From a virus, in the IMG/VR virus record IMGVR_UViG_3300028920_001457, positions 1 to 64,000 of that record: a DNA stretch of 64,000 nt. One strand, given 5' to 3'. Below are positions 29,196-43,135 of the stretch, in pieces. Within the stretch, counting starts at the first letter, position 1; each line of letters begins with the position of its first letter. Below the pieces are notes generated by a model. That model made no database searches and was not told the origin of the DNA. It was given only the letters and a program-made list of their open reading frames with translations. A program made the translations under genes and the position numbers.

Positions 29196-29277
29196 CATGA
29201 TGGCGAAGGCAGAGGTGGTAAGGGTGGTAAGGACGAATGTGAACTGAAAGTTCTGTAAAGAAGCCTTCGCCTGACAT

Positions 29278-29356
29278 AGCGGTGGAGTGAAACGGATAAA
29301 TAAATCATTCGAGTCTCATAATCTCGAGATAGTGGGTTCAACTCCCACGACCGCAA
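29278..29356 (+). tRNA. tRNA-Met(CAT), initiator-like
   Basis: Anticodon loop CTCATAA, T arm GTGGG-TTCAACT-CCCAC, 1:72 mismatch. Confidence 0.8.
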
Positions 29357-34223: not shown

Positions 34224-34943
34224 ATGCCAAAATCAAAGACAAAAGACTGCCAGGGGATAAGTCTTAACAAAAGACGCAACAGGTGGGAGGTTACTATTAT
34301 CTATAAAAGGAAGCGCTATTATTTGGGTTCTTATCACAACAAAAAGATTGCACGGGCTGTATGGGAGTCCAAGAGAGATGAATTTTATGGGACAGAATCA
34401 GTACTCGACTTGCGTGGCGAGGTTTGGATTAAAATGGATAAACATAAGGGGGAATATTATGTTAGCAATAAGGGGCGAGTAAAAAACCTAAATTTTAAGG
34501 GCATGGGCTACGAAAGATTGTGTGGTATCATACCTTCGCATGGCTATAATCAAGTAAAGATAAATAGGGAGAGTTATTCTATACATCGGTTAGTTTTACA
34601 ATATTTTAAGGGAGAATCCGACCTTCCGGTTAATCACAAGGACGGAAATGGAACAAATAATATTTTAGAAAACCTAGAGTATGTTAGTCAGCGGATTAAT
34701 GGTTGCCATGGTTATTTTGTTGTGAACAAAAGAAATGTCCTAACGGGGGCACATTGGGATAAGTGGAATAATAGTTGGCGGTCTGAAATAAACATTAATG
34801 GTAGATTGGTATATTTAGGGTCTTTTAATACATCCATAGAGGCATGCGATAGATACTTACGGGCATTATTGGATTATGGCCTTCAGGATGATTATGATTA
34901 TATTGTCGAAATGATTGGACATAAACCCCATGTCGGAAATTAG
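34224..34943 (+). CDS. NUMOD4/HNH/AP2 homing endonuclease
   Basis: YYVSNKGRVK, IHRLV, VNHKDG...N...NLE, two AP2-like YLGS domains. Confidence 0.9.
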   Translation: MPKSKTKDCQGISLNKRRNRWEVTIIYKRKRYYLGSYHNKKIARAVWESKRDEFYGTESVLDLRGEVWIKMDKHKGEYYVSNKGRVKNLNFKGMGYERLCGIIPSHGYNQVKINRESYSIHRLVLQYFKGESDLPVNHKDGNGTNNILENLEYVSQRINGCHGYFVVNKRNVLTGAHWDKWNNSWRSEININGRLVYLGSFNTSIEACDRYLRALLDYGLQDDYDYIVEMIGHKPHVGN

Positions 34944-36400: not shown

Positions 36401-38155
36401 ATGAATACTTTAAGGTTATTCAATGCGGTAATCGCAAAAGAATCTACAGAAAAACCCTTCGTTTCAGAAGAGGGATTTATCATTGAATCAAATGCTCTTT
36501 GGGCAAAAAATAGGATATTGGAATTCTATCTCAAGGAAAAGTTAAGTGGTAACGATCTTAACAAAACATTTCACAAATCATGGGCTAAAATTAAAAACAG
36601 CTCTCGGTTTGAATTGTTTGTTGAGCAGATATTTCATTATATTTCTACATACGGAAGTGATTTTCAGGACGAAATATATATTCCCGATGAAGTATTAAAT
36701 GTACCTGACGTAAAGTTGTCATACAAGGTTGTCCGTGCATATTCCAAGGAGGAAATGACGGATAAGTGTTTATCACTATTAAAATCAGGTATAGCATTAA
36801 AGGAGGAAACAATTAATGAGGTGTTATCGGTGCTTGTTGAAGAACTGGATTATTCCTTTACGGGAAATGAGAAAATCAGAAACAAAGAGGCTGTTATAAA
36901 AATAGCAGATATTTATGGCGTTCTGCCCAATGACACCATGGAGTTTTTCAGATATATTATATATCGGGCTACGGGGCAGTCTCTTCTTATTAAGAGCAAT
37001 GATTTGATAATGAAAATTAAAGAAGGGAATTATAATCCGTCGGTTCAGTTTAATAAATTCGGATTAGAAAAATTGGCAACGATATTTAATCGTTTTAAGC
37101 CATTATTCTTGGCATTTAAACCCAAGTGCGGAAAAACGATCAATAAAATTGCGAAGTTGTCTAAAAAGTTTCATAAACCTCTCGTTGTCAACCCCCTTAA
37201 TACCGCAACAAGTGAGCTGATGGGGGATGATGATAGACATTGGTTGGATAATGCTACGCCGTACGCTTTATTTAAAGTATTATCGGCATGTTATACGAGA
37301 GCGAGCGGCCAAGAGTCTTTCGTTTATCGGATTAGAAACGGGAAATCCTGGGTCAAGGAAAAGGAAACTATTTTGAGGGTGAACAAGTTAAATTTTGATT
37401 TCATTATAAAGTATCTGAAAGAAAGATATGATTTATCAGAAAAGAAATTCTTTTTGCCTGCTGATATAAAATATGCCCTTCCTACATCAGAAAAAATGTT
37501 TGTTGGCAATATTCCCACAGGAACGAGATTTTATGGCAGGAAGTTGGCGGTTGGGATATATTGGGAGGACGCATGGGGGGCAAGAGACCTCGATCTTTCG
37601 GGGTTGACGCTTTCAGGGCATAAGGTTGGTTGGAATGCAGAATATGATTATGGCGAAGGACAATTAATGTATTCTGGCGATATTACATCCGCCCCCAATG
37701 GTGCGGTAGAGTACCTGTATGCCAACAAAGGGCTTCGGGAATCGGTTTTAATAAAAAACAATGTTTATTCGGGAAGTAATGAATGTGATTATAAAATCGT
37801 TATTGGGTTGGGGGATAAGATTTCTGTGGATTATATGATGAACCCAAATAATCTTTTTATAGAAGTCAAATGTAAGTCCGTACAAAAACAGACCATATTG
37901 GGGATTCTTACTCCAAAGAAAATGGGGCAGTGCTTTGTATTGCTTAATTTTGGGGCGGGACATGTAAGGGTGTCGGGCAACAGTAAGATATCTAATATCG
38001 CCCTTAAGTCACTATATGAACAATGGAACAAACCGTTTTCATTTAATAAATTGATTAAATTATTGGGGGCGCAGATTGTTGAAAACAAAGAGGATGCAGA
38101 TTATGATTTCTCGTCTGATAATTTAGAAAAAGATTCTTTTATTAAGATATTTTAA
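36401..38155 (+). CDS. Large helical protein with C-terminal TerD-like domain
   Basis: GIYW...RDLDLSG...YSGDITSAPNGAVEYL is TerD-like; N-terminal LNKTFHKSW...EQIFHYISTYG helical region. Confidence 0.6.
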   Translation: MNTLRLFNAVIAKESTEKPFVSEEGFIIESNALWAKNRILEFYLKEKLSGNDLNKTFHKSWAKIKNSSRFELFVEQIFHYISTYGSDFQDEIYIPDEVLNVPDVKLSYKVVRAYSKEEMTDKCLSLLKSGIALKEETINEVLSVLVEELDYSFTGNEKIRNKEAVIKIADIYGVLPNDTMEFFRYIIYRATGQSLLIKSNDLIMKIKEGNYNPSVQFNKFGLEKLATIFNRFKPLFLAFKPKCGKTINKIAKLSKKFHKPLVVNPLNTATSELMGDDDRHWLDNATPYALFKVLSACYTRASGQESFVYRIRNGKSWVKEKETILRVNKLNFDFIIKYLKERYDLSEKKFFLPADIKYALPTSEKMFVGNIPTGTRFYGRKLAVGIYWEDAWGARDLDLSGLTLSGHKVGWNAEYDYGEGQLMYSGDITSAPNGAVEYLYANKGLRESVLIKNNVYSGSNECDYKIVIGLGDKISVDYMMNPNNLFIEVKCKSVQKQTILGILTPKKMGQCFVLLNFGAGHVRVSGNSKISNIALKSLYEQWNKPFSFNKLIKLLGAQIVENKEDADYDFSSDNLEKDSFIKIF

Positions 38156-38156
38156 T

Positions 38157-38164
38157 TATCTTTG
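38157..38164 (+). promoter_or_regulatory. Bacteroidota-type -7 promoter element of tRNA operon 1
   Basis: TATCTTTG four nt before the leader ATG (leaderless-like). Confidence 0.65.
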
Positions 38165-38168
38165 CACC

Positions 38169-38231
38169 ATGATTAGAATACAGCATATAGAGCAACCGCA
38201 ACAGCCAAGAGCCGATATTGGGTCTGGATAG
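38169..38231 (+). CDS. Attenuator leader peptide 1 (MIRIQHIEQPQQPRADIGSG)
   Basis: Codons ATA,CAG,CAT,ATA,GAG,CAA,CCG,CAA,CAG,CCA match downstream Ile(TAT), Gln, His, Glu, Pro tRNAs. Confidence 0.85.
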   Translation: MIRIQHIEQPQQPRADIGSG

Positions 38232-38256
38232 GTGTTCTATGTGTTTATAATACAGA

Positions 38257-38287
38257 GCCTTCTGGACTATTTCAGAGGGCTTTTTTT
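38257..38287 (+). terminator. Attenuator terminator 1
   Basis: GCCTTCTGGA-CTAT-TTCAGAGGGC plus T7, just before the first tRNA. Confidence 0.85.
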
Positions 38288-38291
38288 ATTT

Positions 38292-38364
38292 CGGAAGTAT
38301 GGTGTAATCAGGTAGCATACGTGCCTTGGGCGCACGGGGAGTAGTTCGAATCTAATATTTCCGA
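38292..38364 (+). tRNA. tRNA-Pro(TGG)
   Basis: CGTGC-CTTGGGC-GCACG; acceptor CGGAAGT/ATTTCCG. Confidence 0.9.
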
Positions 38365-38370
38365 CAATAT

Positions 38371-38442
38371 TGGCACATAGGTTAATGGTAAGACCTCTCG
38401 GCTTATACCCCAGCAGTCCAAGTTCGATTCTTGGTGTGCCAA
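38371..38442 (+). tRNA. tRNA-Ile(TAT)
   Basis: Loop CTTATAC; acceptor TGGCACA/TGTGCCA; T loop TTCGATT. Confidence 0.8.
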
Positions 38443-38443
38443 C

Positions 38444-38518
38444 GGTGGTTATGGTGTAATGGCAACATAACTGTTTGTGGAGCAGTGGTTATCAGTTCGA
38501 GCCTGATTAATCACCCCA
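38444..38518 (+). tRNA. tRNA-His(GTG)
   Basis: G-1:C73, loop TTGTGGA, encoded CCA. Confidence 0.9.
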
Positions 38519-38519
38519 T

Positions 38520-38590
38520 GCTCGGTTCTTCTAACGGCAGGAAATCGGGTTTTCACCCCGGCAATAGCGGTTCAATTCCGCTACCGAGTA
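38520..38590 (+). tRNA. tRNA-Glu(TTC)
   Basis: TCGGG-TTTTCAC-CCCGG; T arm AGCGG-TTCAATT-CCGCT. Confidence 0.9.
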
Positions 38591-38596
38591 CGATAA

Positions 38597-38667
38597 TGCC
38601 TTGTGGTGTAATAGTAACACATAACACTTTGGATGTTATGTTTTCGGTGCGAATCCGAACAAGGCAT
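38597..38667 (+). tRNA. tRNA-Gln(TTG)
   Basis: TAACA-CTTTGGA-TGTTA; acceptor TGCCTTG/CAAGGCA. Confidence 0.9.
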
Positions 38668-38676
38668 CAAAATAAA

Positions 38677-38707
38677 TTTGGAAATTTAAAAATATGTATT
38701 ATCTTTG
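38677..38707 (+). promoter_or_regulatory. Bacteroidota-type promoter of tRNA operon 2
   Basis: TTTG (38677) then 19 nt then TATCTTTG (38700). Confidence 0.75.
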
Positions 38708-38726
38708 TACCAATAAAAAACAAAAA

Positions 38727-38801
38727 ATGCAGTTAGTCAGAAAGAATATGGTGAATATTGACCGCACAGGCGCAACCTTGCGAGGGGGTATTCCTATATG
38801 A
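38727..38801 (+). CDS. Attenuator leader peptide 2 (MQLVRKNMVNIDRTGATLRGGIPI)
   Basis: Core V-R-K-N-M-V-N-I-D-R-T-G-A-T covers all 10 amino acids of the 11 downstream tRNAs. Confidence 0.85.
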   Translation: MQLVRKNMVNIDRTGATLRGGIPI

Positions 38802-38822
38802 TTTCTGTAAGAAACAACAGGG

Positions 38823-38851
38823 ATGCCCTCAAGAGATTGGGGGCATTTTTT
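38823..38851 (+). terminator. Attenuator terminator 2
   Basis: ATGCCCTCAA-GAGA-TTGGGGGCAT plus T5. Confidence 0.85.
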
Positions 38852-38853
38852 AT

Positions 38854-38924
38854 TGGCTCATAGTTTAATAGTAGAACGCATCTCTGATACGGATGTAGCC
38901 TAAGTGCGATTCTTAGTGAGCCAA
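38854..38924 (+). tRNA. tRNA-Ile(GAT)
   Basis: CATCT-CTGATAC-GGATG; acceptor TGGCTCA/TGAGCCA. Confidence 0.85.
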
Positions 38925-38928
38925 CAAT

Positions 38929-39001
38929 AGCGGGTTGTGTAGAAATAGTATCTCGTCAGTCTCATAAGCTGAAGTTATGGGTGCAATCCCCATACCCGCT
39001 A
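38929..39001 (+). tRNA. tRNA-Met(CAT)
   Basis: TCAGT-CTCATAA-GCTGA; acceptor AGCGGGT/ACCCGCT. Confidence 0.85.
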
Positions 39002-39005
39002 CAAT

Positions 39006-39077
39006 GGGAATATGGTGAAATGGGTATCACGATGGACTGTTAATCCTTCGTTATAGGTTCAAGTCCTATTGTTCCCG
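39006..39077 (+). tRNA. tRNA-Asn(GTT)
   Basis: Loop CTGTTAA; G73. Confidence 0.9.
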
Positions 39078-39081
39078 CAAA

Positions 39082-39153
39082 GTCCTTGTGGTGTAATGGA
39101 GAGCACAAGTGTCTTCTAAGCATTTAGTCAGGGTTCGACTCCTTGCGGGGACA
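39082..39153 (+). tRNA. tRNA-Arg(TCT)
   Basis: Loop CTTCTAA; T loop TTCGACT. Confidence 0.9.
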
Positions 39154-39159
39154 CTAAAT

Positions 39160-39234
39160 ACCCTTGTAGGCTCCTTGGTGGAGAACCAGATTGTCACTCT
39201 GGTAAAACAGACGGATCGTAACCGTTCAGGGGTG
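39160..39234 (+). tRNA. tRNA-Asp(GTC)
   Basis: CCAGA-TTGTCAC-TCTGG; G73; atypical T loop ATCGTAA. Confidence 0.8.
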
Positions 39235-39239
39235 CAAGC

Positions 39240-39312
39240 GGGTTGCAATGTACCAAGGCTGGCGAGAGACCCTTGCAAGGTTTTTGGCTCGGTTCGATTC
39301 CGAGGCGATCCA
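39240..39312 (+). tRNA. tRNA-Ala(TGC)
   Basis: Loop CTTGCAA; G3:U70 identity pair present. Confidence 0.9.
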
Positions 39313-39315
39313 CAA

Positions 39316-39387
39316 GCAGGATAGGTGTTGATGGTTGCATAAGAGCCTTCCAAGCTCAAGGAGTGAATTCGAATTTCACATCCTGCT
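39316..39387 (+). tRNA. tRNA-Gly(TCC)
   Basis: Loop CTTCCAA; acceptor GCAGGAT/ATCCTGC; U73. Confidence 0.9.
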
Positions 39388-39391
39388 CAAT

Positions 39392-39466
39392 GGGCGATTA
39401 GTTTAATGGACAGAATATATCGCTACGGACGATATGGTGAGGATTCGATTTCTTCATCGCCCACCA
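39392..39466 (+). tRNA. tRNA-Arg(ACG)
   Basis: TATCG-CTACGGA-CGATA; encoded CCA. Confidence 0.9.
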
Positions 39467-39468
39467 AT

Positions 39469-39540
39469 GACCCTATAATTTCAACAGTAGAATCCCATCC
39501 TTTTAAGATGGTTGTCTTGGGGCGGAACCAAGTGGGGTCA
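39469..39540 (+). tRNA. tRNA-Lys(TTT)
   Basis: CCATC-CTTTTAA-GATGG; atypical T loop GGCGGAA. Confidence 0.8.
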
Positions 39541-39544
39541 CAAA

Positions 39545-39616
39545 GGCAGGTTAGTTTAAGCGGCAAAACACGTGATTTGTAACCATGAGATACGGCTTCG
39601 ATCGCTGTACTTGCCT
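39545..39616 (+). tRNA. tRNA-Thr(TGT)
   Basis: Loop TTTGTAA; acceptor GGCAGGT/ACTTGCC. Confidence 0.85.
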
Positions 39617-39621
39617 CAAAT

Positions 39622-39694
39622 AGCCCGATAGTGTAGCGGTTAAGCACGGCACCCTTACAAGATGTCAGCCACAGTTCGAGTCTGTGTTGGGCTA
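39622..39694 (+). tRNA. tRNA-Val(TAC)
   Basis: Loop CTTACAA; T loop TTCGAGT. Confidence 0.85.
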
Positions 39695-39712
39695 CAAAAA
39701 AACATAAATATA

Positions 39713-39743
39713 TTTGTTTATTTAAAAATTATTATTAATTTTG
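39713..39743 (+). promoter_or_regulatory. Bacteroidota-type promoter of tRNA operon 3
   Basis: TTTG (39713) then 19 nt then TAATTTTG (39736). Confidence 0.75.
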
Positions 39744-39749
39744 CAGATT

Positions 39750-39812
39750 ATGAAAAATCTATGGTGTTCATATAGTTTATTTTCACTCTTGCTCTTGAGG
39801 CGAGGCGGATAA
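39750..39812 (+). CDS. Attenuator leader peptide 3 (MKNLWCSYSLFSLLLLRRGG)
   Basis: CTA,TGG,TGT,TCA,TAT,AGT,TTA,TTT,TCA,CTC,TTG: at least one codon for each of the 9 downstream tRNAs. Confidence 0.9.
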   Translation: MKNLWCSYSLFSLLLLRRGG

Positions 39813-39838
39813 ACTATATCTACCAAAGATATATTGAA

Positions 39839-39864
39839 GCCTCGCTTATAAAGCGGGGTTTTTT
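39839..39864 (+). terminator. Attenuator terminator 3
   Basis: GCCTCGCTT-ATA-AAGCGGGGT plus T5. Confidence 0.85.
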
Positions 39865-39869
39865 GTTAT

Positions 39870-39942
39870 GGGGAATTGACGTAAATGGCAACCGTATTGG
39901 GTTTAAGCCCCAAGTTTGAGAGTTCGAATCTCTTGTTCCCCA
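39870..39942 (+). tRNA. tRNA-Leu(TAA), short variable loop
   Basis: TTGGG-TTTAAGC-CCCAA; A73. Confidence 0.85.
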
Positions 39943-39945
39943 CAT

Positions 39946-40018
39946 GGTCGAGTGACGTAACAGGCAACCGTATCCGTCTCAAAAGCGGAGTTTATGGGTT
40001 CGAATCCCATCTTGACCA
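39946..40018 (+). tRNA. tRNA-Leu(CAA), short variable loop
   Basis: TCCGT-CTCAAAA-GCGGA; A73. Confidence 0.85.
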
Positions 40019-40022
40019 CAAA

Positions 40023-40095
40023 GCTCAGGTAGTAAATTGGCAAAGCAACTTGACTTAGGATCAAGGATTTGTGAGTTCGAGTCTCACCCTGAGTA
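40023..40095 (+). tRNA. tRNA-Leu(TAG), short variable loop
   Basis: CTTGA-CTTAGGA-TCAAG; A73. Confidence 0.85.
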
Positions 40096-40099
40096 CTAT

Positions 40100-40191
40100 G
40101 GATGGCTAAACCACAGTAGGTCTAAGTGGGACGGTCTTGAAAACCGTAGGTCGCTCAACACGGCGTGTAAGTTCGAGTCTTACGCCATCCG
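40100..40191 (+). tRNA. tRNA-Ser(TGA)
   Basis: ACGGT-CTTGAAA-ACCGT; long variable arm; G73. Confidence 0.9.
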
Positions 40192-40195
40192 CGAA

Positions 40196-40278
40196 GGGAC
40201 GGCTTGGCATTAGTGAGCCTAAGAGTCTGTAAAACTCCCGCTTCGGCTGTGGTGGTGCAAATCCATCTCGTCCCACCA
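40196..40278 (+). tRNA. tRNA-Tyr(GTA)
   Basis: Loop CTGTAAA; variable arm; encoded CCA. Confidence 0.9.
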
Positions 40279-40279
40279 A

Positions 40280-40362
40280 GGAGAGTAAATCATCAAGGCG
40301 ATGACTACGCCCGCTAAGCGATAGGTTCTGAAAGGAATGGGACTCGGGTTCTCTGCTCTCCG
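40280..40362 (+). tRNA. tRNA-Ser(GCT), divergent
   Basis: Acceptor GGAGAGT/GCTCTCC, loop CCGCTAA (C33), long variable arm, weak T arm. Confidence 0.65.
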
Positions 40363-40367
40363 CAAAC

Positions 40368-40437
40368 AGGGATACCCATTGGAGTGGTAAGCGGTCTCCA
40401 AAACCGTGATTTGAATGTTCGACCCGTTCTATCCCTG
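40368..40437 (+). tRNA. tRNA-Trp(CCA)
   Basis: GCGGT-CTCCAAA-ACCGT; G73. Confidence 0.85.
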
Positions 40438-40441
40438 CTAT

Positions 40442-40518
40442 GGAGAAGTAGCTGAGTCGGTTCAAGCGTCGGACTGAAAATCCGAAGTAGATGAGTTCAA
40501 TTCTCATATTCTCCACCA
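40442..40518 (+). tRNA. tRNA-Phe(GAA)
   Basis: TCGGA-CTGAAAA-TCCGA; encoded CCA. Confidence 0.9.
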
Positions 40519-40519
40519 A

Positions 40520-40586
40520 GACCCAATAAAAGCACAAAACGTGGTTTGCAAAACCATGGGGGACGGTGCGATTCCGTCTTGGGTCT
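40520..40586 (+). tRNA. tRNA-Cys(GCA), D-arm reduced
   Basis: GTGGT-TTGCAAA-ACCAT; U73; D region is an unpaired A-rich 14-mer. Confidence 0.75.
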
Positions 40587-40624
40587 CTAATATATTTCTT
40601 ACCTTTGCATAAAACAAGAATAGT

Positions 40625-43135
40625 ATGGGCAAGAAACAACCGCCAAAGGCAGAAAAGAAACTTTCCTTTGAAACAGACTTTGAGTTACAGGAAGAAACCC
40701 GCCTAAAGCTACGTCCCGAAGATATAGTAAAGATAAAAGAGGAAGCAGGCAAACTACCCGATGACTTTAATCCTTATGGGAACTATATGCCCGAAAAACT
40801 CAGATTTCTGGGCGACGAACCACCCCCAAACACCAAAAGATTTGTTGGAATAAATGTGGATGATGATGATCTGACACCGATTTATGTAAGCACACCCGCC
40901 CCCCCGCCGAAAGAATTAATAGATTATCACGACCTACCACCCACAGAACAATATTGGCGGCGTATGGAAGTACCCAAACGACTGCATAAATTAGAAGAGA
41001 GAGCCTTCCTTGCGCTATTTGAGGTAGAAAGAAGAAACAGGCAGGAAACAGTACAGGGCTATAGGATTTATCAGAAATATTGGGAAATATTAGAAGCAGA
41101 ACAGGATAAATATGCGGAAGAGATAGCATGGATAAAAAAGATGTGGTGGTACAGGACTAACGGCTATTGGTTCTATAATGATGGCGAACCCGCCTATTGT
41201 ACTGGTGAATATTTTGATTATCTTAACTTTTGGTATATAAAGGATGGTGAGACACATGTGGAATTCAGGGAAGAGGATCGGGTTATTTCTATTTTTTCAC
41301 ATTATCTAAGAACAACAACCGAGTCTTTCGCCAACATAAACCCCACCACGGGTAGGGCAATGAAAAATAAAGATGGCAAGTATGATATGGTGGATGTCGG
41401 TGCAAGAGTATTTTTCGGTGACATGAAACCGAAATTCAGGAGGTGTGGGGAAACGCAATGGGCGTGTCACGGGATATGGCTTGGTGCGAGTACGACACCC
41501 GCCGCTTATGGTACTATCATATCCATGGATGGTGAAAACGCACAAAAGCACTATTACAAAAAGCTAATACCCGCATGGAATAAATATCCTATGTTTCTCA
41601 AGCCAATATGGATGGGTACGAAACGTCCCACAAATATTAAGTTGATAGAACCACCCAATGTATTTAATCCCAATATGGAGGGATTGGGTTCTAATATTGA
41701 TTATACAGAAAGCTCCGGGGTGTCGAAGAATGATGGTGATACATTACATTTTTGTCTCTCAGACGAGGAGGGAAAAAGTAAGTCACCTATAGCCGAAAGG
41801 TGGAGTGTAAATAAGATAGCTATGTCAACGGGTGGTGGGTCTAACATCCTTAATAACGCTTATGCGTGGCATCCGAGTACCGTTGAGGATATTGGTGACG
41901 GTGCGCCAGAGTATTTTAAAATGTGGCAACTATCTAATTTTTATGAAAGGATACCCATACTTGGGCAGACACACTCGGGGTTGGCAAGGATTTTCATTCC
42001 CGCATATAAGAAACTCGAGGGTTTTATTGACAGGTGGGGTAAGTCGGTATCGGATACACCAACGAAACGACAGATAAAATACAGTCCACGAGCCAAATTT
42101 GCACTCACGGGCAAGGGTGCAAGGGAAACACTACAGGCAGTTCTTGATTCCTTGTTAGCCAAGGGGACACCCGAGGCACTTGAGGCATACAGGTCAAGGC
42201 GCAGAAAGTTCCCGATGAAGTCGGCAGATGCATGGTTGGGGAGTTCGGGTAATGTGGGTTTCAACCTTGAGATAATAGACAAGCGTATAGAGGAACTCAA
42301 TAGGATAAAGTCTTTTGGCAAGATGAATTATAAAACCGGGTATTTTTACAGGGAAAACAATCATCCACAGGGCGATGTGTTGTGGCGTACAGACCTCGAC
42401 AACCCCAAGTTTATCATGTCCAAGGACTTACCACAGGAATTAACCAACAGAAGGAGTGTGGTCGACTTTTACGATGGTCTCAGGCAACAGTGGAAGAAAT
42501 CATGGACACCAGTAGACGGATATAAATTCACCCTTGGGGTGGATATGTTCAGAAATCTATCGCCCGTAGAGGCAAAACAGGCATCTAAATTTGGGGGATT
42601 TACCAATAACTCCCGCCAGAGTAATGGTGGTATAGCTATTCTATGGGAATATGATTCAGAATATCCCGATAGTGGCAGGTGTGTATTGTCGTATAATTAT
42701 CGTCCATCGACACAAAAAGAGTTTATGGATGATGTTCTTATGGCGGCACAGTATTTCGGGGCAATGATATATCCCGAACAAAACGTAGAGCGGTTTATTG
42801 AGTATATGTTTGATGAGGGCTATGGCGGGTATGGGCTTTATGATATTGATTTGGTAACTGGTAATATAAAGAAACTACCAGGGCGATATACTACAAAAGA
42901 AAGCCTGCAAGAGATGTTCAGGGAATATAAGGACTATATAGAACGTAAGGGTGCGGAAGAAGAACACGATGATTTGCTAATGCAGATGAAAAACATACGT
43001 GGGGTAGAAGATGCTACACGTAATGACCTTTTCGTTGCTTTCGGTATGTGTCTTCTTGGAAGTAAGTCCCGTGTCAGGGAAATTATAAAGCGTGAAGACT
43101 TTGGTGAGGCAATAGCAATAGACGATATTTTTTAA
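40625..43135 (+). CDS. Terminase large subunit (crAss-like)
   Basis: Walker A-like KPKFRRCGET, Walker B-like LSDEEGK, nuclease LGVD, E.NV and D..VAFG motifs; sits before portal. Confidence 0.85.
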   Translation: MGKKQPPKAEKKLSFETDFELQEETRLKLRPEDIVKIKEEAGKLPDDFNPYGNYMPEKLRFLGDEPPPNTKRFVGINVDDDDLTPIYVSTPAPPPKELIDYHDLPPTEQYWRRMEVPKRLHKLEERAFLALFEVERRNRQETVQGYRIYQKYWEILEAEQDKYAEEIAWIKKMWWYRTNGYWFYNDGEPAYCTGEYFDYLNFWYIKDGETHVEFREEDRVISIFSHYLRTTTESFANINPTTGRAMKNKDGKYDMVDVGARVFFGDMKPKFRRCGETQWACHGIWLGASTTPAAYGTIISMDGENAQKHYYKKLIPAWNKYPMFLKPIWMGTKRPTNIKLIEPPNVFNPNMEGLGSNIDYTESSGVSKNDGDTLHFCLSDEEGKSKSPIAERWSVNKIAMSTGGGSNILNNAYAWHPSTVEDIGDGAPEYFKMWQLSNFYERIPILGQTHSGLARIFIPAYKKLEGFIDRWGKSVSDTPTKRQIKYSPRAKFALTGKGARETLQAVLDSLLAKGTPEALEAYRSRRRKFPMKSADAWLGSSGNVGFNLEIIDKRIEELNRIKSFGKMNYKTGYFYRENNHPQGDVLWRTDLDNPKFIMSKDLPQELTNRRSVVDFYDGLRQQWKKSWTPVDGYKFTLGVDMFRNLSPVEAKQASKFGGFTNNSRQSNGGIAILWEYDSEYPDSGRCVLSYNYRPSTQKEFMDDVLMAAQYFGAMIYPEQNVERFIEYMFDEGYGGYGLYDIDLVTGNIKKLPGRYTTKESLQEMFREYKDYIERKGAEEEHDDLLMQMKNIRGVEDATRNDLFVAFGMCLLGSKSRVREIIKREDFGEAIAIDDIF

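Follow-up and report, generated by a model that had tools for sequence, protein, structure and literature searches.

A probable leader-peptide attenuator ahead of a nine-gene tRNA operon in a Bacteroidota phage

Several enterobacterial leaders control transcription by multivalent attenuation: the thr leader senses Thr and Ile, the ilvGMEDA and ilvBN leaders sense Ile, Leu and Val, and attenuating leaders are also found at trp, his, leu and pheA. A T-box needs no ribosome: the RNA itself binds the tRNA, recognising it by a single specifier codon and by its acceptor end. The tRNA genes of phages are mostly seen as an aid to codon usage or as a means to replace host tRNAs that are lost in the course of infection, and to our knowledge little is established about the control of their expression. 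Attenuation has been described for the pheL leader (PMC3082878) and has been treated theoretically (PMC1183508). Among published systems in which accessory tRNA genes are regulated, the closest is the trn operon (L-array) of Anabaena sp. PCC 7120. This array of about 20-plus tRNA genes is accessory and has spread horizontally; it is silent by default, is turned on when translation is impaired, and is associated with rtcB (PMC8421152). Its induction goes through 9-nt direct repeats in the promoter that overlap both the -10 box and the start of transcription; a leader ORF, an attenuator or a terminator is not mentioned in the paper (PMC8421152). Here, we analysed positions 1 to 64,000 (hereafter the window) of IMG/VR record IMGVR_UViG_3300028920_001457, a 77-kb phage record of marine sediment source. 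We focus on a short open reading frame (ORF) and an intrinsic terminator at 39750-39866, which probably constitute a ribosome-mediated (leader-peptide) transcription attenuator gating a nine-gene tRNA operon of a Bacteroidota phage.

In the window, an array of 25 tRNA genes (+ strand) is flanked by a 584-aa ORF on one side and by the gene of the large terminase TerL (40625-43135) on the other. These genes form three blocks, each preceded by a Bacteroidota-type promoter, a short ORF and an intrinsic terminator whose end lies a few bases ahead of the first tRNA (Table 1). Jointly, the three blocks serve all 20 amino acids and have a single tRNA for each family box, and the codons of the three leaders likewise include every one of the 20. 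The element under study precedes the third block.

The ORF of this element, leader 3, begins with ATG AAA AAT, continues with a run of eight codons (codons 4-11), and then reads TCA CTC TTG CTC TTG, followed by AGG CGA GGC GGA and the stop codon TAA. Codons 4-11 use eight of the nine block-3 tRNAs, once each: CTA is read by Leu-TAG, TGG by Trp-CCA, TGT by Cys-GCA, TCA by Ser-TGA, TAT by Tyr-GTA, AGT by Ser-GCT, TTA by Leu-TAA, and TTT by Phe-GAA. For Leu-CAA, the remaining tRNA of the block, the matching codon TTG occurs twice, as codons 14 and 16, and all codons from 4 to 16 (13 codons, to 39797) lie within the six amino acids of block 3. The initial annotation, made from the letters of the sequence, had described eight codons in a row with a separate tRNA of the block for each, and TTG shortly after; the reading frame and the nine-gene block agree with it on both points. 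When the phage's own codon usage was applied, a series of eight successive codons for eight different operon-3 tRNAs had p = 1.6e-8 per position, or about 1.9e-7 per ORF. Random ORFs of the same length showed a run of 9 at 3e-6, and all 9/9 tRNAs were covered at 5e-5. Among the 599 short ORFs of the window, each of the three leaders ranks first for its own tRNA set, and the leader-by-operon match matrix is diagonal (10/7/0, 2/14/2, 0/5/11).

Three mutually exclusive helices are predicted in the leader-3 transcript: a 1:2 stem, an antiterminator and a terminator. The unconstrained minimum free energy fold comprises the 1:2 stem, of 13 pairs, together with the terminator stem. Within region 2, UCUUGCU (39787-39793) pairs with the terminator 3' arm (39852-39858), and AGGCGAGGC (39798-39806) pairs with the terminator 5' arm GCCTCGCTT (39839-39847) through 9 pairs, including one G-U. 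This latter pairing, with the terminator's 5' arm as its second strand, is the one that had been pointed out from the sequence, and it was recovered here. We then masked a ribosome footprint from -15 to +13 nt of the A site and placed it codon by codon. The terminator probability was at most 0.1 only with the A site at codons 5-10; it was at least 0.85 at codons 1-4, intermediate at codons 11-12, and at least 0.92 from codon 13. The predicted stall window thus coincides with the one-to-one codon run. The Rfam models Trp_leader (RF00513; 30.0 bits, threshold 41) and Phe_leader (RF01859; 25.2 bits, threshold 55) both scored below their gathering thresholds, and what the element shares with these leaders is its architecture alone.

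G-rich Arg/Gly codons close each of the three leaders (RADIGSG, RGGIPI and RRGG), as stated in the initial annotation, which saw in them a fit with constraint by the antiterminator rather than by sensing. This reading holds well for leaders 2 and 3, in which the link to the antiterminator is clear, and less well for leader 1 of this phage, in which it is weak. Across the relatives, the amino acids encoded by the G-rich last codons differ (R/G/K and G/S/R) while GCGAGG, the partner of CCTCGC, is invariant, which supports RNA pairing as the constraint.

The promoter of leader 3 is one of 18 sites in the window with the pattern TTTG-N17-22-TAnnTTTG, for which 3.6 would be expected. The ATG of leader 3 begins 6 nt past the -7 box, and the transcript is probably leaderless or nearly so. 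In leaders 1 and 3 of all relatives, the ATG likewise lies 4-8 nt past this box, a spacing suggestive of messages that are leaderless or almost so. The first four U of the run form the end of the terminator's 3' arm, and the stem has a predicted stability of about -15 kcal/mol. Only 3 nt separate the end of the terminator from the first tRNA-Leu gene; no further promoter fits in this space, so the tRNAs can be transcribed only by read-through of the terminator. No terminator was found at the ends of blocks 1 and 2 (38668-38707 and 39695-39743). Read-through would therefore enter the next leader, and each attenuator would also gate the transcription coming from upstream.

We read this element as a trp-type, multivalent attenuator, which would report the speed of decoding for the very tRNAs under its control. 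The leader ORF is presumably translated and the switch responsive. With a start of transcription a few bases ahead of the ATG, the 20-codon leader would be translated by a ribosome close behind the RNA polymerase. If codons 4-11 were read fast, the ribosome would reach the stop codon and cover AGGCGAGGC; the terminator would form, and transcription would stop just ahead of tRNA-Leu. A delay on any codon of the run would break the 1:2 stem and leave region 2 free to pair with both terminator arms, and the polymerase would continue into the tRNA genes. If the leader were not translated at all, the 1:2 stem and the terminator would both form, making "off" the default state. The circuit would be a negative feedback on decoding capacity, because its products are the tRNAs that read the sensing codons and would thereby remove the signal.

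Table 1. Position of the attenuator, its predicted RNA elements, the tRNA genes that it precedes and the two sister attenuators (coordinates of the window).
Feature	Position	Strand	Basis or remark
Promoter, -33 TTTG	39713-39716	+	Bacteroidota-type
Promoter, -7 box TAATTTTG	39736-39743	+	Bacteroidota-type; box kept in all relatives
Leader ORF 3, 20 codons, peptide MKNLWCSYSLFSLLLLRRGG	39750-39812	+	In-frame ORF, conserved in six relatives
Putative sensing run, codons 4-11 (CTA TGG TGT TCA TAT AGT TTA TTT)	39759-39782	+	
Region 1, 5' strand of 1:2 stem (anti-antiterminator), codons 8-11	39770-39782	+	Pairs with 39807-39819
Region 2, antiterminator 5' strands	39787-39806	+	Constrained folds
3' strand of 1:2 stem, including stop codon	39807-39819	+	
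Small hairpin inside antiterminator	39815-39821/39827-39833	+	Overlaps 3' strand of 1:2 stem
Intrinsic terminator	39836-39866	+	12-pair stem 39836-39862, T-run 39859-39864, then GTT
tRNA-Leu(TAA)	39870-39943	+	ARAGORN
tRNA-Leu(CAA)	39946-40019	+	ARAGORN
tRNA-Leu(TAG)	40023-40096	+	ARAGORN
tRNA-Ser(TGA)	40100-40192	+	ARAGORN
tRNA-Tyr(GTA)	40191-40278	+	ARAGORN
tRNA-Ser(GCT), non-canonical, anticodon loop CCGCTAA	~40281-40365	+	Cloverleaf-like fold, alignment to Ser-GCT of relatives
tRNA-Trp(CCA)	40368-40438	+	ARAGORN
tRNA-Phe(GAA)	40442-40518	+	ARAGORN
tRNA-Cys(GCA), non-canonical, reduced D arm	~40521-40586	+	Fold, alignment to ARAGORN-called Cys-GCA in L009, L011 and L021
Sister attenuator 1, leader MIRIQHIEQPQQPRADIGSG	38169-38283	+	Leader 38169-38231, terminator 38254-38283
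Sister attenuator 2, leader MQLVRKNMVNIDRTGATLRGGIPI	38727-38846	+	Leader 38727-38801, terminator 38817-38846

Conservation was assessed in six contigs with the same array (L009, L011, L021, L038/L109, L056/L110 and L089), giving seven sequences with this phage. These relatives were retrieved by terminase alignment and with three DNA patterns, and about 25 further TerL relatives (64-79% identity) lie outside the comparison. The patterns had 77, 22 and 8 matches in IMG/VR, mostly due to chance. The TerL proteins of the six relatives are about 70-80% identical, where measurable. The promoter boxes, the three leaders and the terminators are kept in all six. The order of residues in leader 3 shifts between relatives: WC becomes CW, CTA and TTA are swapped in L009, and TTA-TTT-TCA is replaced by TCG-TTT-TTA. 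Despite this reordering, every block-3 tRNA stays represented in leader 3, and every leader 3 shows the same class pattern by tRNA operon ('22-3333333333333-2222'). The only indel inside the ORF is of 3 nt, and those outside are of 1, 2 and 5 nt. Reads of four salt-marsh DNA runs gave fragmentary contigs with two changes already present in L089. The number of TTG codons (2 vs 1) was considered against the presence of Leu-CAA and set aside, as it possibly reflects one phylogenetic event and the first TTG lies within a search pattern.

The helices are kept as well. Across the seven sequences, pairing is retained at 95.6% in the 1:2 stem, 97-98% in the antiterminator and 94% in the terminator, compared with 28-57% when the partner strand is slid (up to 71% for the terminator). 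In the 1:2 stem, a compensatory change from TA to CG turns codon TTA into TCG together with the stop codon TAA into TGA. The antiterminator exhibits the series CG, UG, UA (columns 57:91), affecting a base whose pairing in the terminator is likewise maintained, and the terminator exhibits the series AU, GU, GC (one compensatory pair). The stall window recurs in three relatives (L009, L021 and L110), and L011 and L109 have a narrower one. The attenuator that had been proposed for operon 3 is thus supported by its promoter, the adjoining terminator, the exclusive helices, the stall window on the codon run and the conservation in six relatives. All the features of the leader-peptide attenuator class that can be examined in sequence were found at this locus.

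The two sister attenuators follow the same plan. Attenuator 1 precedes the Pro, Ile-TAT, His, Glu and Gln tRNAs, and its leader contains ten successive codons for Ile-ATA, Gln, His, Glu and Pro. Attenuator 2 precedes 11 tRNAs (Ile-GAT, Met, Asn, two Arg, Asp, Ala, Gly, Lys, Thr and Val), all of which are represented in its leader. Leaders 1 and 3 share the heptamer CATATAG as 5' strand of the 1:2 stem (38185-38191 and 39769-39775), read in different frames (CAT ATA G and.CA TAT AG.). This shared motif may point to a common descent of the attenuators.

Several observations weigh against the attenuator, or against parts of it. If a ribosome stalled at TTG, codon 14 or 16, it would cover region 2, the antiterminator strand, so that Leu-CAA is probably not sensed through these codons; the one-to-one match of the initial annotation, which included all three Leu tRNAs, stands for the codons and probably fails for the sensing of Leu-CAA. 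Two of the nine block-3 tRNAs, Ser-GCT and Cys-GCA, are non-canonical and may be non-functional. In L011, codon 4 is an Ile codon, and Leu-TAG is matched there only by CTC. Equilibrium folding yields no antiterminator for leader 1 of this phage; a weak one (38230-38238/38254-38261) appears only when the 3' arm is left out, and leader 1 of the relative L110 has a clear stall window. The shuffle controls for the helices are non-significant, with seven related sequences and at most one event per helix, and the covariation is to be taken as supportive, not as proof. In L119 and L128, leader 1 mismatches the tRNAs that follow it, which indicates that the match is not obligatory for persistence. L119 (minus strand, 331-750), like L128, is a deletion derivative of the array, in which leader 1 and its terminator are intact and the genes after them are a tRNA that is a Pro/Trp hybrid, Phe and Cys tRNAs, and then TerL. 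A last point concerns sensitivity: with one codon per tRNA, the published model of attenuation predicts a low sensitivity to mild limitation of a single tRNA species (PMC1183508).

The same parts could be assembled into other explanations. The terminators could be constitutively leaky, or act as insulators between the tRNA blocks, with the short ORF present by chance or untranslated. Operons 1 and 2 do not have end terminators, and the hairpins could merely dose read-through. This is very unlikely, given that the codon match occurs three times over, each with a chance far below 1e-6, that a reshuffled peptide goes along with a conserved ORF and frame, and that the alternative helices show compensatory changes and are placed with reference to the stop codon. 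The reshuffling also bears on the ORF as a gene for a functional hydrophobic micropeptide, closed by the terminator. The leader-3 peptide is hydrophobic and its composition is conserved, but the order of its residues varies (WC or CW, with L, S and F shuffled), the other two leaders are hydrophilic and matched to their own tRNA sets, and the tRNAs past the terminator would be left without a promoter of their own; we regard a micropeptide as scarcely credible. A switch made of RNA only, binding tRNAs directly in the manner of a T-box and without translation, would account for the display of codons beside a terminator/antiterminator pair. However, an Rfam search of 37500-41000 gave no T-box or other riboswitch match down to E = 1, many different codons are displayed rather than one specifier, the distance from promoter to ATG is fixed, and the indel is in frame; this option, too, deserves hardly any credence.

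A closer competitor retains the attenuator and changes its signal, which would be amino-acid starvation (uncharged tRNA), the signal known from biosynthetic operons, or a general slowing of translation instead of tRNA loss; the tRNA genes would then simply answer to slow translation. The mechanism is blind to whether a tRNA is missing or uncharged, the design is most sensitive when all control codons slow together (PMC1183508), and the Anabaena array is induced by general translational stress (PMC8421152). Nevertheless, extra tRNA does not relieve a shortage of amino acids, and a general stress switch needs no split of 25 tRNAs into three sets with their own matched leaders. Furthermore, the ATA codon of leader 1, which is read only by Ile-TAT, is invariant, whereas the Gln and Pro codons drift within the range of their tRNA. 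We consider such a signal unlikely, and infer that the natural trigger of the attenuator is loss or shortage of tRNA, caused for instance by host anticodon nucleases or by a poorly matched host tRNA pool. According to the model of attenuation, a single regulatory codon among many confers low sensitivity to mild limitation, and sensitivities converge once that codon becomes very slow (PMC1183508). The design is thus suited to the severe loss of a single isoacceptor or to the joint slowing of all codons, a regime that would fit the cleavage or degradation of tRNA during infection.

It is possible, though in our judgement somewhat short of probable, that the three elements form a self-contained phage sensor and rescue system for the tRNA pool. 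Each leader would be an OR gate of single codons for its block, loss of a single host tRNA species, or of the entire pool, would lead to resupply of exactly that set, and such systems would be widespread across unrelated lineages as a means of counter-defence. The loss could come from an anticodon nuclease of a defence system. The array of L009 contains, between block 1 and leader 2, a gene for an RtcB RNA ligase with its own promoter box (519-1688; PF01139, E 5.6e-115). RtcB is absent from this phage record, from G002 and from G003, and its presence inside the L009 array is only a hint at tRNA damage as the relevant stress.

With regard to the array as a whole (38292-40586), the 25 tRNAs are a complete minimal elongator set. 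Each family box has one U34 or A34 tRNA, each split box has G34 plus U34 tRNAs, and the set is completed by Ile-TAT, Met, Trp and an extra Leu-CAA. The amino acids of block 3 are exactly those of the UNN codon row. In the window, 22 of the 25 genes were called by ARAGORN and Rfam. The other three (Lys-TTT, Ser-GCT and Cys-GCA) are non-canonical; they have tRNA-like folds and align with ARAGORN-called genes of relatives, and the Ser-GCT and Cys-GCA genes were not called in the window by default ARAGORN or Rfam. The three tRNA-Leu genes of block 3 are 74 nt long, with a D stem of 3 bp, discriminator A73 and a variable loop of 4-5 nt, as in the class-I shape. This is unusual, as a long variable arm is the norm for tRNA-Leu of the bacterial type.

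Away from the array, an orphan tRNA-Met(CAT)-like gene (29278-29356; 29.4 bits with Rfam) may encode an initiator tRNA. Upstream of it lie a 16-codon ORF (29197-29247) and a 9-pair stem (GGCGAAGGC/GCCTTCGCC), and no terminator was found ahead of the gene (29197-29356). An HNH gene is present in the window at 34224-34943. Insertions of homing-type nucleases occur in the arrays of two relatives, namely a PD-(D/E)XK ORF in block 3 of L109 (2390-2887) and an HNH-like ORF in block 2 of L021 (578-1020).

The phage belongs to a lineage of about 80-100 kb phages that are distantly related to Cellulophaga podophages. Its host is probably a member of the Bacteroidota, class Flavobacteriia, as the promoters and the distant TerL relatives point there. 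Near the terminase of Cellulophaga phage phi19:3, the nearest cultured relative by TerL (24% identity), no tRNA genes are annotated, and blastn against cultured phages gave only single-tRNA matches. No tRNA array was found upstream of TerL in G001 (TerL 59%), L014, L016, L017 and others.

If the attenuator works as proposed, phages gauge decoding capacity codon by codon and resupply it on demand, and classical attenuation extends from the supply of amino acids to the supply of tRNAs. The leaders also give an independent readout of the anticodons served by odd-looking tRNAs, here Ser-GCT, Cys-GCA and Lys-TTT. As the element is only about 120 nt long, it could be reused as a codon-specific biosensor.

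Our searches of the literature did not bring up a description of tRNA genes under the control of a leader peptide. The comparison is with systems that share part of the design. Like the Anabaena array, this locus would be an accessory tRNA array that is silent by default and turned on when translation is impaired, and RtcB lies inside the array of one phage relative (L009). In contrast, the Anabaena signal is general translational stress and is not codon-specific. The leader-3 promoter is of the type ordinary for this phage. As with T-box riboswitches, the state of specific tRNAs would be sensed, and a terminator/antiterminator pair would be switched before translation-related genes; T-boxes, however, achieve this by direct, ribosome-free binding of tRNA, whereas a leader ORF takes this place here, with no T-box match. 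In its parts, the element resembles the attenuators of amino-acid operons, with which it shares a promoter, a short ORF with regulatory codons, the 1:2, 2:3 and 3:4 helices, an intrinsic terminator, a stop codon placed so that a finishing ribosome would mask region 2, and the putative sensing of more than one amino acid. It differs from them in being phage-borne and in controlling tRNA genes instead of biosynthetic enzymes. It also has one codon per isoacceptor for 8-9 tRNAs, whereas the known leaders contain tandem repeats for 1-3 amino acids; its codons map to the anticodons encoded downstream, and its transcript is probably leaderless. Based on this comparison, the mechanism would be the known one of attenuation in a new form, with tRNA genes as the controlled genes.

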